IMG/VR virus record: IMGVR_UViG_3300025634_000001
Location: 32,001 to 96,000 of that record
Source: a virus
DNA length: 64,000 bases
Reading direction: 5' to 3' (one strand)
The notes under the pieces: generated by a model
What the model saw: only the letters and a program-made list of their open reading frames with translations
What the model was told of the DNA's origin: nothing
The model's database searches: none
Program-made: the position numbers and the translations under genes
Part shown: positions 30,853-51,294 of the stretch, in pieces
How positions within the stretch are numbered: position 1 is the stretch's first letter
How the letters are laid out: the number at the start of each line of letters is the position of its first letter

Positions 30853-31193
30853 GCCTCTCCGTCCTCAAGGTCGAGCATCGCCTGCAGGATGACTGCCTCG
30901 GCCTGCAGTTCCGCGCACTCGGCGAGCAGTTCTTCCGTCTGGGCTTTTATGGCGGCGGTCCGCCCCTCATCGACTTCGCCCGTGAGCACCATCTCCCGGT
31001 AGTCGTCCTCGGCCTCGTCAAGGATGAGCTGGGAGTAGCCGACGTCCAGGCCGATGTGGCAGGACTCCTCCAGGAGATCCATTGCGGACAGCACACGGGC
31101 CCGAGCCTGCTGGACTGAAACGGGCGCCTTCATGATCCGGCCGGACGGATGGCCGGCGGGGTAGCTCTCGCCGAGGTCTGTACGATTAGTCAT
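30849..31193 (-). CDS. Helical acidic protein co-transcribed with the HNH
   Basis: GAGGAAGG RBS; stop overlaps HNH start. Confidence 0.6.
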   Translation of the reverse strand: MTNRTDLGESYPAGHPSGRIMKAPVSVQQARARVLSAMDLLEESCHIGLDVGYSQLILDEAEDDYREMVLTGEVDEGRTAAIKAQTEELLAECAELQAEAVILQAMLDLEDGEA

Positions 31194-31199
31194 AGCTGG

Positions 31200-31290
31200 G
31201 CCTTCCTCTGCTAAGGGTTGAGGTCGAGCACGCGAGGCGATGGGGTGCAATCCTGTCGCCTCGCTTTTTAATGCCTTCACATTCTACCGC
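31200..31290 (-). promoter_or_regulatory. Promoter/leader of HNH cassette
   Basis: GCGG-TAGAAT, A-run, GCGAGGCGA/TCGCCTCGC hairpin, CCCTTAGCAG before RBS. Confidence 0.6.
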
Positions 31291-37328: not shown

Positions 37329-37334
37329 GTCGGA

Positions 37335-37420
37335 CCTCCTGCTAAGGGGTAAAGGTTCGGCCACGCCCCCGGACGATTCACAGTCGTCGCGGGGGTCTTT
37401 TCGTACAGCCATTCTACCGC
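37335..37420 (-). promoter_or_regulatory. Promoter/leader of NUMOD4-HNH
   Basis: GCGG-TAGAAT, A-run, CCCCC..GGGGG hairpin, CCCTTAGCAGGAGG. Confidence 0.6.
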
Positions 37421-37449
37421 CAACACAGTCTTGCGAACGGAGTTTGGCT

Positions 37450-46573: not shown

Positions 46574-46683
46574 ACGGGTTCTGCTTCAGGTGCGGCGCCT
46601 TCGGGCTGCTCGGCCGGGCTACGGCATGGTGCGGCAAATGCACGGACCGGTGGCACCGGGACCGCCAGCGAGGACCGCGATGA
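46570..46683 (+). CDS. Tiny zinc-finger protein
   Basis: CFRC...CGKC; coupled GTGA/ATGA. Confidence 0.45.
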   Translation: MNGFCFRCGAFGLLGRATAWCGKCTDRWHRDRQRGPR

Positions 46684-47438
46684 CGCCGCTGAAGCTGTCC
46701 GTCGACTCCGAGGGACGCGTTCACGGCCCGCGCATCACCTGGAACGACCCGTGGCCCTGCCGCAACGGGGACGCCGGGGGGATGAAGGTCCCGTCCGGGG
46801 TGCTCGGGATGCTTGTCCACACCCAGGTTGGCAACAATCCGGGATCTGTCAGCTGGTTCAATAACAGCGCATCTCAGGCATCGGCACATTTCTGCGTGGC
46901 CCAAGATGGCTCGATCGTGCAGATGGGACCGGTCAACGGGTGGAAGGCGTGGCATGCCGCCGAGGGCAATCCCCACTGGTTCGGCTGTGAGTTCGCCGAC
47001 GACGGCAACCCCGCGAACCCGCTCACCGCATCGCAGGTCATCGCCGGGGCGCAGCTCCTCGAGCTGCTGTCGCGGCCCGATGTCGGCCGGTTCCCCCTCC
47101 AGATGAGCAACTCGCCGAGCACCGAGGGGCTCGGCTGGCACGGGATGGGCGGCGTCGCGTTCGGCGGCCACTTCGACTGCCCCGGCGACACCCGCAAAGC
47201 CCAGCGACCGCGGATCATCGCGCTGGCCGCGGCCATCCGGGCGGGCGGATCGCAGGCGGGACCGTTCCGGCACACCGCGCCGGGCGGGAAGACGCTCGGC
47301 GAGATAGCAGCCGCGCGCAGTACGACGCCGGAGCACGTCTTCGGCGTGTCCGCGAAGGCCTACACCGCCGCGGACGTGGCCGTGATCGCCACGCTGCCGC
47401 TGCCGCCCGGTTTCCCGTATTACACATCCAGCCCCTGA
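46680..47438 (+). CDS. Endolysin, N-acetylmuramoyl-L-alanine amidase (Amidase_2)
   Basis: VHT, SAHF..DG.I.Q, AWHA, E, H..CPG zinc-amidase motifs; LysM-like C-terminus. Confidence 0.9.
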   Translation: MTPLKLSVDSEGRVHGPRITWNDPWPCRNGDAGGMKVPSGVLGMLVHTQVGNNPGSVSWFNNSASQASAHFCVAQDGSIVQMGPVNGWKAWHAAEGNPHWFGCEFADDGNPANPLTASQVIAGAQLLELLSRPDVGRFPLQMSNSPSTEGLGWHGMGGVAFGGHFDCPGDTRKAQRPRIIALAAAIRAGGSQAGPFRHTAPGGKTLGEIAAARSTTPEHVFGVSAKAYTAADVAVIATLPLPPGFPYYTSSP

Positions 47439-47450
47439 TCGGAGCCCGTC

Positions 47451-48314
47451 TTGACCCTGAAGCTAGGCCGCCTTCCCGGCCAGATCCCGGCGGGACTGCG
47501 GGACCTCACCTTCTACTCGGCCGGGCCGCTCCCGAAGCCGCCGCCGAGCGTGACCATCCCCGCCGTCCCAGCGTGGGGCATGGACGGCAACGACGTCTAC
47601 GGAGACTGTGGCGTTGCCGGGATCACCCACGGCTTCCAGGCCGCCGCAGCGGACACCCGCGAGACCGAAGCGTTCCCGCCCGCCGCCGAGGTCATCAGCT
47701 ACTACCTGAAGTACACGGGCGGCCAGGACTCCGGTGTCGTCCTCTCTCAGTTCCTCGCCTACGTCCGTGCGCACGGGTTCTACGGCCACTCGGTAGCCGC
47801 CTACGCCCCCGTCGCCGTCCACGACGTGCCGACTCTCCAGTTCTGCATCGACGCCTACGACTTCGCCTATGTGGGCATCACGGTCACCCAGGGCATGATG
47901 GACGCCGCCCAGGGCCCCGGGCCGTGGACATGGACTGCTGAGGACGCCGCAGGTGCCGAGATCGGCGGGCACTGCATCATCCTCGTGGCCTACGACAGCC
48001 AGTGGCTCTACGGCGTCACCTGGGGCCAGGTCGTCCGCATCGCCTACCCGGCCTGGCACCGGATGAGCGACGAGGCGTGGGCGGTCCTGCCGGGTGAGAT
48101 CCGCACCGCGGGTACTGACGGCCACGGGATCAACATCGCCGCGCTGAACGCCGACATGCCCCGCCTCGACGGGACCGCAGGCCAGCCCGCAGCCGGCCCG
48201 GCCGGGCATGAGGGCCTTCTGGGTGAGCTCGCCGCCGCTGTCCGGGACGTGGCCGCAAGCACCGAGAAGGACGTCACGGAACTCCTTTCCTTCCTCGCAT
48301 CGAAGGGGCTCTAG
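47451..48314 (+). CDS. Papain-like cysteine peptidase domain protein
   Basis: GNDVYGDCGVAG, GGHCI, VTWG. Confidence 0.75.
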   Translation: MTLKLGRLPGQIPAGLRDLTFYSAGPLPKPPPSVTIPAVPAWGMDGNDVYGDCGVAGITHGFQAAAADTRETEAFPPAAEVISYYLKYTGGQDSGVVLSQFLAYVRAHGFYGHSVAAYAPVAVHDVPTLQFCIDAYDFAYVGITVTQGMMDAAQGPGPWTWTAEDAAGAEIGGHCIILVAYDSQWLYGVTWGQVVRIAYPAWHRMSDEAWAVLPGEIRTAGTDGHGINIAALNADMPRLDGTAGQPAAGPAGHEGLLGELAAAVRDVAASTEKDVTELLSFLASKGL

Positions 48315-48316
48315 CC

Positions 48317-48580
48317 ATGTCCCATGCCGCAGACCCCGGCATCGCCGCCCACATCGAGCACTGGCTGCAGCAGCACGTAGCCCCCGACATCACCCGCCTC
48401 AAGGCCGACGTGTCAAAGGTCCGGGCGCTGCTCCCCGAACTCCAGGTGCTCGCTAACACCGTCGTGACGCTGGCTAAGGCCTCTGACGTCCCCGAGGTCG
48501 CGGTGATCGCGGAGGACGCGGTGAAAGCCGCTGAGGTCATCGCGGAGATCGCGACGGCACTGGCGGCGGCAGGGATGTAG
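48317..48580 (+). CDS. Helical hypothetical protein
   Basis: GAAGGGG RBS; operon continuity. Confidence 0.6.
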   Translation: MSHAADPGIAAHIEHWLQQHVAPDITRLKADVSKVRALLPELQVLANTVVTLAKASDVPEVAVIAEDAVKAAEVIAEIATALAAAGM

Positions 48581-48684
48581 GTCTCGCTCCCGCGCGGCTG
48601 AGGGGGCCGCTGGTGAATACGTCCGGGCAGGCGGGATGGCCCGGCGGTAGGTAACGGCGGCCACGAGCAGAAAGGCGGCCAGCC

Positions 48685-48900
48685 GGCGATGCAAGGATTT
48701 TTTCGTGACTCCTCCTGCGGATTGAGTCCGCAGGATTCTCAGGCAGCTATCGCCTGACGGGCAAGCCCTGCCCGCAAGATGTTGATGGCCGCGTTCACGT
48801 CCGCGTGGGCCTCGTGGCCGCACGACAGGCACCGGAAAACGGCCTGGCTTGCACGGTTCCCCTTGGCGACGTGCCCGCACTGAGCGCATCGCTGCGAGGT
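48685..48900 (-). ncRNA. Predicted TnpB omegaRNA (scaffold 5' end approximate) and guide
   Basis: After the tnpB stop: hairpin CCTGCGGA-CTCAA-TCCGCAGG then AGGAGTCAC, a typical IS200/605-type right end; guide GAAAAAATCCTTGCATCGCC. Confidence 0.7.
48689..48704 (+). pseudogene. Orphaned original 5' end (MQGFF) of the gene at 50066; also the predicted TnpB guide
   Basis: GAAAGG..ATG CAA GGA TTT TTT C abuts the element end; matches TTG AAC GGC TTT TTC C at 50066. Confidence 0.65.
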
Positions 48901-49926
48901 GTTCTGGGGGTTTACTGCGACTACCGTCCGTCCGGCCCATTCTGCCTTGGCGGCGAGTATCCGCAGGAAGTTACCCCATCCCGCATCCTTGATGGATCTG
49001 TTCAGCCCAGCTTTGGCCGCCGCGCCGTTTGGCTCGAACGTGCCGTCACCAACCGGCCGCGGTTTCGGTCGGCGGGTCATGTTCGCGATCTTCAATGCTT
49101 CATGCACGATCACGTCATGGTCACGGACGAGAGCCAGCGCGGTCTTATGGGCATGGTCGAGGCGCTGGCGGCGTGCCTTGCCGTACAGTGCCGCAACCCG
49201 CCGGGTGGCCTTGCGCCTGCGATTGCTTCCTAGTTTCTTGCGGGAGTGCTTCCGGTTGGCGGCGGCAAGACGTTCAGTGATGGCGGCATGCGGGCGCGGG
49301 TTCGGGACGTGCTTCCCGTCGCTGGTCGTCAGGAACGACATCACGCCTAGGTCGATGCCGACGACCGCGCCAGTCGGCGCCAGTGCCTCAACCGGCACGT
49401 CATCGCAAGTCAGGATCACGTACCAGCGACCAAGCTCACGTCTTACCGTGATCCTCTTGACGATGCCCCTGACCGGGCGGTGCTGGTGTACGCGGACGTG
49501 GCCGATGCCCTGAAGCTTCACGCGGGTCACGGTCGGATGCGGGACAGAATCCCAGAGGCATGCATGGCCATTCTCCGGCCACTCGATGGAGTTCCACCGA
49601 CCCCGCCCCTTGAAGCGAGGATGGCCGGGTACCTCGCCTGCCTTGACGCGACGGAAGAAGCCTAGGAACGCATCGTCAAGGCGACGGAGAGTTTCCTGCT
49701 CGCAACTGTAGGCCCACCGGGTGAACCGCTCCGGGGCGGCGGCACGGATCTCCTTCAGCTGTGCCGCCTGTGTGCTGTAGAAGATGCGGCGTTTCCCCAT
49801 CCGCCATGCCTCAACGCGTTCCTCAAGCGCGGCGTTATATAGCTCGCGGGTGTCCTCAAGGCACGCCTCGAACGCGGCTATCTGCTTAGCAGTCGGCCGC
49901 AGAAGGAACCTATAGTTGCGATACAA
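48739..49926 (-). CDS. tnpB: TnpB RNA-guided endonuclease, no TnpA
   Basis: YRFLLRPT..Q, LYNAAL, RuvC GIDLG / VHEAL / ADVNAAINI, CAQC..CLSC zinc finger; probable TTG start. Confidence 0.95.
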   Translation of the reverse strand: MYRNYRFLLRPTAKQIAAFEACLEDTRELYNAALEERVEAWRMGKRRIFYSTQAAQLKEIRAAAPERFTRWAYSCEQETLRRLDDAFLGFFRRVKAGEVPGHPRFKGRGRWNSIEWPENGHACLWDSVPHPTVTRVKLQGIGHVRVHQHRPVRGIVKRITVRRELGRWYVILTCDDVPVEALAPTGAVVGIDLGVMSFLTTSDGKHVPNPRPHAAITERLAAANRKHSRKKLGSNRRRKATRRVAALYGKARRQRLDHAHKTALALVRDHDVIVHEALKIANMTRRPKPRPVGDGTFEPNGAAAKAGLNRSIKDAGWGNFLRILAAKAEWAGRTVVAVNPQNTSQRCAQCGHVAKGNRASQAVFRCLSCGHEAHADVNAAINILRAGLARQAIAA

Positions 49927-49954
49927 CCTGCACCGGGTCTCAGTAGTCGGTGTG

Positions 49955-50013
49955 GGTTCAGGCCCGGTTCGGTGGTTGCACATCGGCCGGGCCGCTTTAT
50001 GTCGAACAGTCTA
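49955..50013 (-). promoter_or_regulatory. tnpB promoter/leader
   Basis: TAGACT, AAAG, GGCCCGG/CCGGGCC hairpin. Confidence 0.55.
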
Positions 50014-50065
50014 GCGGACTTAGACCACGACATGCATGAGTGCCACGCTGAAAGGTGGCGAAAAA

Positions 50066-50389
50066 TTGAACGGCTTTTTCCACCCGGAAGTCCTCCGGGT
50101 GCTCGACAGGATCGACGCGCAGCTCTGCGCAATCAACGAGAAACTGGAGAACATCATCATGTCTCAATCGGATATCGATGCTGCCGTGGCGACCGACACG
50201 GCGCTGCTGGCCGACCTGACCACCCAGACCGCCGCGATCGCCGCCGCGCAGGCCGCGTTCGCCGCGGAGATCGCCACCCTGCAGGGCCAGGGCGTGGACA
50301 CGTCCGCGCTGGACGCCATCAACGCTCAGCTGGCCGCCGCTCAGGCGCCTCTGGACGCTGCGGTGACCGCGCTGACCGCTGCGAGCTAG
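50066..50389 (+). CDS. Coiled-coil Ala-rich protein
   Basis: TTG after GAAAGGTGG; MNGFFHPEVL... Confidence 0.7.
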   Translation: MNGFFHPEVLRVLDRIDAQLCAINEKLENIIMSQSDIDAAVATDTALLADLTTQTAAIAAAQAAFAAEIATLQGQGVDTSALDAINAQLAAAQAPLDAAVTALTAAS

Positions 50390-50417
50390 CCGGTAGGCTA
50401 CCGCCCAGGTAAACGGG

Positions 50418-50457
50418 AAGCAGCGCGCCTCGTCTTCGGACGGGGCGCGCTGCTTTT
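50418..50457 (+). terminator. Intrinsic terminator ending the late operon (likely bidirectional)
   Basis: 16-bp stem, cUUCGg loop, TTTT; between convergent genes. Confidence 0.85.
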
Positions 50458-50471
50458 GCGTTGGGGCGGGA

Positions 50472-51140
50472 CTAGCCGGCGATATTGCCATCCCCGGCCG
50501 AGTCGCCGTAGTTGTTGTTATAGCCATCCGTCCACTGCTGGTACTGCTCGCTGGCGACAGGGACGACGAAGCGGCCGAACACCCGGTAGGAGATCGTCGT
50601 CACCGTCACGCCGTAGTGCCACGACCAGTCCCCGATGCCGATACCGCCGAAGGTGGTCCCGTGCGGGAACGCCAGCTCATACCACGTCGAGGTACTGTCG
50701 GCCGGGTCGGCACCGTGATCGTTCTCGCTGTAGGCGACACCCGCATTGAACGCCGCGCTCGGCAGCTCGGACGCAGTGAACGAGAAATCGGCGTAACCCG
50801 CCATCTGCCCGGTGACCCTGGACTTGATCACGTCGCCGGCGTAGGAGCCGCCCTGGTTCGGGGTCGGCGCTCCCTTGACCGTCGTGAAGGTGCCGATGTC
50901 GCCGAGCGTCGCGGTGAAGGTGTAGGCGCCGGGCGAGCCGCCAGTCAGGGTGACCGTCAGGCTCCGGGTCATGGTGTCGTCAGCCCAGGTGTCCGGGTTA
51001 CCGTTCCCGCCGTCAGGGCGGTCGGTGACAAAGGTCAGCGCGTGCCACGACGGCTGACGGGCAGCGGCGTTCGCGATGCCGCCTGACGTCAGCAGCGCTG
51101 CGGCTGCGGCAACCGCGATGGCTGCGGCTTTGATGCTCAT
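50472..51140 (-). CDS. Secreted protein
   Basis: Signal peptide MSIKAAAIAV...ANA|AA; GAGGAG RBS. Confidence 0.75.
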   Translation of the reverse strand: MSIKAAAIAVAAAAALLTSGGIANAAARQPSWHALTFVTDRPDGGNGNPDTWADDTMTRSLTVTLTGGSPGAYTFTATLGDIGTFTTVKGAPTPNQGGSYAGDVIKSRVTGQMAGYADFSFTASELPSAAFNAGVAYSENDHGADPADSTSTWYELAFPHGTTFGGIGIGDWSWHYGVTVTTISYRVFGRFVVPVASEQYQQWTDGYNNNYGDSAGDGNIAG

Positions 51141-51294
51141 TACGTTGTCTCCTCGTTGAGTGTTCAATCGGTTGCTGTGGGGTATTTAGGCAGTGATCGC
51201 ACCGTTACCGCTCGCGCTCCCGGTTACAGCCGGCGAGCACCCCCGCCAAGCCCGGCCGCGCCGATCCCCCCCAGGCGCGGCCGGGCCCCAGGGG

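Follow-up and report, generated by a model that had tools for sequence, protein, structure and literature searches.

A TnpB element without a transposase beside a degenerate repeat of a gene start in a soil actinophage, and the unoccupied allele predicted as its target

Cas12 descends from TnpB, the natural role of which is still under study; as its guide TnpB uses the 16-20 nt that lie beyond the right end of its element. The subject of this study is a tnpB element in a 64-kb window, by which is meant the whole stretch of DNA analysed, bases 32001-96000 of the 105,737-bp IMG/VR virus record IMGVR_UViG_3300025634_000001, which has direct terminal repeats; coordinates given without a locus name are those of the window. 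The source of the DNA is a soil/peat actinophage of about 105 kb. With ISDra2 TnpB (8H1J, 8EXA) and the IS1341 group the element shares the domain set, the D-E-D RuvC triad and the zinc finger, as well as a predicted omegaRNA scaffold overlapping both the 3' end of tnpB and the right end, a guide predicted to come from the flank and the apparent absence of a target-site duplication. It differs from ISDra2 in its protein, which is about 30% identical, in its adjacent motif, apparently (C/T)CAT versus TTGAT, in its left end, which is a leader with no recognisable transposase hairpin, and in its replicon, a phage. In common with the T-even Seg and Mob genes, which encode free-standing homing endonucleases active in intronless homing and marker exclusion, it is a nuclease gene placed between conserved phage genes, expected to cut the allele that lacks it and to be copied by repair (PMC13565253). 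Seg and Mob recognise DNA by protein contacts and spare their own copy by substitutions, whereas the window element would recognise its target by a predicted RNA guide and be spared by loss of the adjacent motif. Homing by TnpB without TnpA is already described in concept and is not new with the window locus: a 2026 review names this mode "transposon non-restorative homing", counts co-infecting phages among the possible targets and refers to experiments with plasmids where spread required TnpB and not TnpA (PMC13565253).

The interpretation that we favour, and regard as reasonably probable, is that of a left-end-truncated IS1341-type element which sits in a degenerate duplicated leader and whose guide targets the unoccupied allele. 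The features concerned are listed below; Nonomuraea refers to the related bacterial element described further on, and copies A and B are the two members of the flank repeat.

48739..49983, minus strand: tnpB, longest open reading frame (ORF) 414 aa
48705..48738, minus strand: right end, with hairpin arms at 48714-48720 and 48728-48734 and the terminal GGAGGAGTCAC ending at 48705
48705..48884, minus strand: omegaRNA-like scaffold, overlapping the tnpB 3' end, with 13 of 27 predicted pairs compensatory among 21 relatives
48685..48704, minus strand: predicted omegaRNA guide, the first 16-20 nt past the right end, beginning GAAAAAATCC
49927..50035, minus strand: left end and tnpB leader, about 109 nt, with a -10-like TAGACT (50007-50012 on the plus strand)
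50036..50040, minus strand: candidate transposon-adjacent motif CTCAT, suggested by the CCAT that 10 of the 11 Nonomuraea copies have; ATGAG on the plus strand
48660..48704, plus strand: copy A, with GAAAGGCGG at 48670 and ATG at 48689 (MQGFF), ending at the element
50042..50091, plus strand: copy B, with GAAAGGTGG at 50050 and TTG at 50066 (MNGFFHPEV), the working start of the 107-aa gene
50066..50389, plus strand: downstream gene, intact, 107 aa, or 117 aa if started at ATG 50036

Judged by its relatives, the true start of tnpB is probably TTG 49926, which gives a protein of 395 aa. The OrfB_IS605 RuvC core and the C-terminal zinc-ribbon (TNB) domain of a TnpB were both found. The Pfam matches were OrfB_IS605 and Cas12f1-like_TNB (E 9e-24 and 2.5e-24) together with HTH_OrfB_IS605; the protein also matched PHROG 506 (E 1e-96) and aligned end to end with ISDra2 TnpB (8H1J, E 6e-39). 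The residues D211, E295 and D395 (414-aa numbering) align with the ISDra2 triad in GVDVG, TEHLK and RDENAA, and both CxxC pairs of the zinc finger are present, so that TnpB is catalytically complete as judged by its residues. The three RuvC acids reported by the initial annotation were therefore confirmed, and so was the absence of tnpA: neither Y1_Tnp (PF01797) nor a serine transposase/Resolvase (PF00239) was found in the whole phage record. The gene is present in the phage as a single copy. Relatives were gathered by scans of one genome per prokaryote species (80 loci) and of IMG/VR (17 loci), and the nearest of them show 60-69% protein identity, none exceeding 69%. Among deposited phages, 203 records contain TnpB genes, 44 of them mycobacteriophages.

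At more than 20 of the closer loci the tnpB stop is followed by a hairpin and then by GGAG(G)AGTCAC, and the similarity ends at that C. Because the relatives share this terminus and diverge directly beyond it, the element boundary lies at 48704/48705, where the initial annotation had put it, and the minus-strand flank past the right end begins GAAAAAATCCTTGCAT. RNAalifold analysis of the last 180 nt of the 21 elements gave the 27 pairs listed above, the 13 compensatory ones being kept via changes on both sides, and the GTCAC terminus was invariant. By its pattern of covariation this 3' region is what a conserved omegaRNA scaffold should resemble; a search of Rfam returned no family matching it. 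Since the scaffold is conserved up to the boundary, the right-end flank is the expected guide. The guide had no other match at up to 3 mismatches in the whole phage, and in 401 Actinomycetes genomes the guide together with the motif was matched at chance level (2 hits with 2 mismatches, compared to 2 control hits). Extra copies of the right-end terminus (GGAGTCAC) were observed 30-90 nt beyond the right end at loci L027 and L088, and another, in inverted orientation against the left end, in the left flank of L014/L116; these copies may have been left behind by previous insertions there.

The insertion habit of the family was seen most clearly in Nonomuraea jabiensis (G001), which carries a related tnpB-only element of 1,409 bp in 11 full-length copies of 92-100% identity (loci L012-L015, L020, L046, L108-L118 and L123-L127). 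It resembles the window element in its TnpB (about 60% identity), in the same terminus GGAGGAGTCAC, in inserting directly 5' of an ATG and in having tnpB directed away from the target gene; it differs by its canonical left end, in which a 20-nt hairpin lies at a distance of 18 nt from the tip, by its 11 copies, by related loci with a Y1 tnpA and by being without a flank repeat. CCAT stands directly outside the left end in 10 of the 11 copies, and in 8 of these 10 the complementary ATG opens a long ORF directed away from the element. Four such ORFs were scanned against Pfam; three had matches, and in all three the domain began at profile position 1-2. The start codons supported in this way are those of an ABC ATPase, an FAD oxidoreductase and an MmyB-like regulator, the others having been judged by their N-termini. 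The right-end flank is the complement of the ribosome site of the target gene. With CCAT/ATG on the left and this complement on the right, the Nonomuraea element docks between ribosome site and ATG. Its left tip reads GGGAGA on the other strand, five bases before the ATG, and it may be an insertion sequence (IS) that brings a substitute ribosome site. Y1 tnpA reading frames are found upstream of the relatives L011, L016 and L017. The initial annotation had named, as evidence against its own proposal, a canonical IS found as identical copies in unrelated places; such an IS exists for the family and not for the window copy.

In the window element, the leader of tnpB has in common with the nearest elements (L088, L089 and L008) the -10-like hexamer, a covarying hairpin (49961-49992, the stem of which covaries in L088 and L089) and an ACCCACACCGAC box, and its conservation among TnpB elements on other phage contigs shows it to be part of the element. 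The homology of the left end to these relatives extends to 50019 and no further. A transposase-type subterminal hairpin is unrecognisable in the approximately 109-nt left end, the boundary of which is itself inferred, unlike in the bacterial and mycobacteriophage relatives, where a left-end hairpin lies 18 nt from the tip. Sixteen nucleotides past the last homologous base, the minus strand reads CAT (50036-50038), the complement of which is an ATG that shares the reading frame of the downstream gene. When 48704 is joined to 50036, AAGGA (48693-48697) comes to stand 7 nt before ATG 50036; the reconstructed empty site, AAGGA-N7-ATG(50036), in frame with the gene, is the kind of gap between ribosome site and ATG in which the relatives insert. 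By this analogy the left boundary is placed at 50035/50036 and the adjacent motif would be CTCAT. A hairpin at 50081-50101 was considered as the left-end hairpin proper, in which case copy B would belong to the element; this was set aside as less probable, as there is no left-end homology beyond 50019.

A phage-borne counterpart is provided by the IS608-like element of cluster-F-type mycobacteriophages. In Kimberlium (NC_028792; L120, 12831-14160) the tape measure and minor tail genes are separated by a tnpB-only element of 1.33 kb in antisense orientation; Cabrinians (NC_028678) is empty at this site (L121, 13000-13020) and has the same element elsewhere (L119, at about 31.5 kb). Comparison of the two phages showed that the IS608-like insertion follows TTAC and is clean: it parts GGGAGGGTAA from ATG exactly and is accompanied by no duplication. 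Like the window element, it is phage-borne, without tnpA, antisense to late genes and located between ribosome site and ATG, its guide being the complement of the upstream gene end and the ribosome site. It differs by about 31% TnpB identity, by the motif TTAC/TCAC and the right end TCAA, by canonical hairpins at both ends, and by a recorded empty site without duplication. The right end of the Kimberlium element recreates the last codon and the stop of the tape measure gene, and the same element occurs at no fewer than three sites among related phages.

The statement of the initial annotation that the gene-start context before the element recurs on its far side was borne out. The motif GAAAGGYGG occurs at exactly two sites on the plus strand of the window, 48670 and 50050, and a start codon followed by NAN-GGN-TTTTT likewise at exactly two, 48689 and 50066; both pairs lie at the flanks of the element, in the same order and with a spacing of 19 versus 16 nt, and TTTTT itself has just 6 sites in the 64 kb. 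Gapped local alignment of the flanks alone was non-significant (p 0.08-0.28), and the repeat was judged real because its motifs are rare and colinear, not by alignment score. On the strength of these motifs, the repeat of the ribosome site and start of the neighbouring gene is taken as real. With the element removed, copy A runs six further bases (50036-50041) and copy B, the GCCACG of which begins at 50042, starts directly; the copies form a tandem of about 50 nt each, about 63% identical, with the element 6 nt before the end of copy A. At about 63% identity over 50 nt, this is not a target-site duplication. As the extent of left-end homology indicates, the repeat lies outside the element, which does not carry copy B.

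These observations can be assembled into the following course of events. A conventional IS200/IS605-family tnpB-only element (IS1341-like) of about 1.33 kb, from 48705 to about 50035, would have entered 3' of (C)TCAT, directly before an ATG, as its Nonomuraea and mycobacteriophage relatives do. The right-end flank, formerly the leader of the gene, would be transcribed as the guide, and the TnpB-omegaRNA complex would recognise the unoccupied allele alone, in which CTCAT precedes the 16-20 nt beginning GAAAAAATCC; in the occupied genome the right end stands in place of the motif, and this genome would therefore be immune. In a mixed infection the empty sibling genome would be cut and repaired from the occupied one, so that the element could be kept or spread without TnpA, and such TnpA-independent homing into co-infecting genomes is plausible. 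The downstream gene would be expressed from its own ribosome site and TTG 50066. The flank repeat would be a degenerate tandem duplication, of about 50 nt, of the gene initiation region, older than the insertion or independent of it, and could have arisen as a recombination scar at the variable 5' end of the gene or represent a permissive landing place.

Several points weigh against this interpretation. No empty allele was recovered, so that the sequence before the insertion, the motif and the left boundary are all inferred; for the boundary there is a bracket, 50019 to 50041, rather than a fixed position; and CTCAT differs by one position from the CCAT of Nonomuraea. Moreover, a second duplication hints that insertion and duplication may be linked and not independent. 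Locus L089, a phage contig with 62% TnpB identity, has on its left-end side the ribosome site, the start and roughly 40 initial codons of a MuF-like gene in a second, degenerate copy, the intact gene lying beyond the right end (L089:2806-2948 and L089:4286-4450). A 41-nt block of this repeat is 78% identical, with ribosome site and start aligned in order; the dead copy has an ATG start and is frameshifted, and the live gene starts with TTG. Compared with the window, the gene is a different one and the orientation is opposite. Loci L088 and L090 showed no flank repeat of a gene start; the duplicated-start layout is therefore present in two of four related phage elements, and it is absent in the sole phage case with a known empty site. 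A six-frame screen for flank duplications at 60 TnpB loci was insensitive, missing both the window and L089, and nucleotide z-scores were inflated by GC-rich coding sequence. At L089 the first 12 nt of the right-end flank also have a match within the intact gene, on its antisense strand and some 170 nt further downstream, and at L090 (2900-3040) a small ribbon-helix-helix-like ORF directly upstream of tnpB replaces the usual leader.

The proposal of the initial annotation is closest to a first rival explanation, in which the original coding start (ATG 48689, MQGFF) was interrupted and the gene was rescued by a second, guide-divergent start, borne by the element or captured by recombination, the dead start being kept as a guide with which the nuclease attacks the intact gene starts of element-free relatives, in homing or exclusion. 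The reality of the repeat, which takes in ribosome site, start codon and first codons, speaks for it, as do the similar arrangement at L089 around another gene, where again the dead copy starts with ATG and the live one with TTG, and the divergence of guide and copy B, which differ at 5 of 16 positions as had been counted (11 identical, including the first 6). Furthermore, with the element lying inside copy A, reading copy A across it yields MQGFF-HE, which resembles the MNGFFHPE of copy B; this reading is, however, out of frame with the gene. A replacement start carried by the element is not supported by the coordinates, since left-end homology stops at about 50019, the CAT stands at 50036-50038 and copy B begins only at 50042. 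Nor does copy B appear recoded: its MNGFFHPE matches the N-terminus MDGFFHP of P0003, the closest full-length homologue (76% identity) in a search of 5.8 billion proteins, and is therefore the native, family-typical start, whereas it is copy A that has atypical codons (CAA, GGA, TTT, TTT and CAT, 5/5 A/T-ending in a genome of 68% GC). Resistance to the guide through recoding is likewise superfluous, because on the minus strand copy B is preceded by GGGTG instead of a CAT motif and would be spared whatever its five mismatches, so that no selection for mismatches is needed. An uninterrupted start of the copy B or P0003 type would have GTG/RTG, not CAT, beside the target, and the occupied and empty mycobacteriophage pair shows a clean insertion without duplication. 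What survives of the proposal is its generic part, an intact TnpB with its scaffold, without a transposase and with a left end devoid of the hairpin, whose predicted target is its own site when empty; in the reconstructed empty site the old start reads equally well as AAGGA-N7-ATG(50036). On balance we consider this explanation unlikely.

A second rival, which we hold to be improbable to a similar degree, is that of a passive passenger: an immobile dead-end insertion, without TnpA and left-end hairpin, inherited with the phage and encoding a TnpB without a current role. It would agree with the single copy of tnpB and with the outcome of the searches for an empty target. An exact scan of IMG/VR with the guide 20-mer gave no match, nor did one with the 30-nt right end, and no empty allele was found in IMG/VR, in the JGI metagenome contigs or in the contigs of four further peat/soil runs. 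In the latter, contigs over 48000-50800 belonged to the same occupied phage, crossed both junctions and never skipped the element; being fragmented and of low depth, they are uninformative on rare empty alleles. Two hits of the guide 20-mer in the JGI contigs fell in low-GC, unrelated sequence, and one IMG/VR hit of a degenerate gene-start pattern fell in the portal gene of an unrelated low-GC phage; all three were dismissed as chance. Against a passenger stands the fact that at 60-69% identity the ORF, the omegaRNA stems, the zinc finger and every catalytic residue are intact, which argues for purifying selection, and the occurrence of related short-left-end elements at different sites in other phage contigs (L088 and L089). 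That the flanks resemble each other by chance, both being merely ribosome sites with T-rich starts, is very improbable in spite of the non-significant scores of generic local alignments and the overall identity of just about 63%, since each motif occurs exactly twice on the plus strand of the 64 kb, at the flanks, in the same order and at near-equal spacing, and T-runs are very rare in a genome of 68% GC.

The element lies antisense within the late region of the phage, and an amidase endolysin gene (46590-47438) is located just upstream of the locus. Metagenome runs from peat and soil, several in number, contain DNA near-identical to the phage; when 47400-51200 was compared by megablast with 50,697 deposited phage records, no match and no close relative emerged. 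The 107-aa protein encoded downstream is Ala-rich, with a C-terminal part conserved and an N-terminus variable among phages. Its closest homologue, P0002 (86% identity), begins at the position of GTG 50099, from which it follows that the N-terminal 11 codons of the gene are a variable add-on among close relatives. Codons 6-12 contain a perfect 7-bp hairpin with a 7-nt loop (50081-50101). The 87-aa protein encoded upstream had no relatives in IMG/VR, the IMG/VR homologues of the flanking 287-aa and 107-aa proteins were too distant or non-syntenic, and no paralogy of the 87-aa and 107-aa proteins was found. Two HNH-type nuclease cassettes on the minus strand (31190-31290 and 37330-37430) have a common GCGGTAGAATG, hairpin and CCCTTAGCAG before their starts, and the layout of the tnpB leader (TAGACT, hairpin, ACCC box) is the same as that before these cassettes.

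Transposase-free RNA-guided homing would be of greatest consequence in phages, since occupied and empty alleles meet there during co-infection. To this setting the window locus adds one further tnpB that is intact, is without a transposase and has a predictable target. It is tempting to speculate that RNA-guided homing is the sole means by which phage TnpB cassettes with a truncated left end spread, and that phages in which one landed at the 5' end of a needed gene survived by means of a second copy of the start, the dead copy serving as the guide or lying next to it; we regard this as doubtful, if conceivable. If it were true, duplication of the start, as seen in the window and at L089, would be a mark that TnpB leaves repeatedly on the phage genomes it invades. 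Two other results are more useful in practice. One is the docking of the relatives between ribosome site and start codon, together with the substitute ribosome site that the Nonomuraea element may bring. The other is the cultured pair of occupied and empty alleles constituted by Kimberlium and Cabrinians, which would allow the idea of homing to be tested directly.

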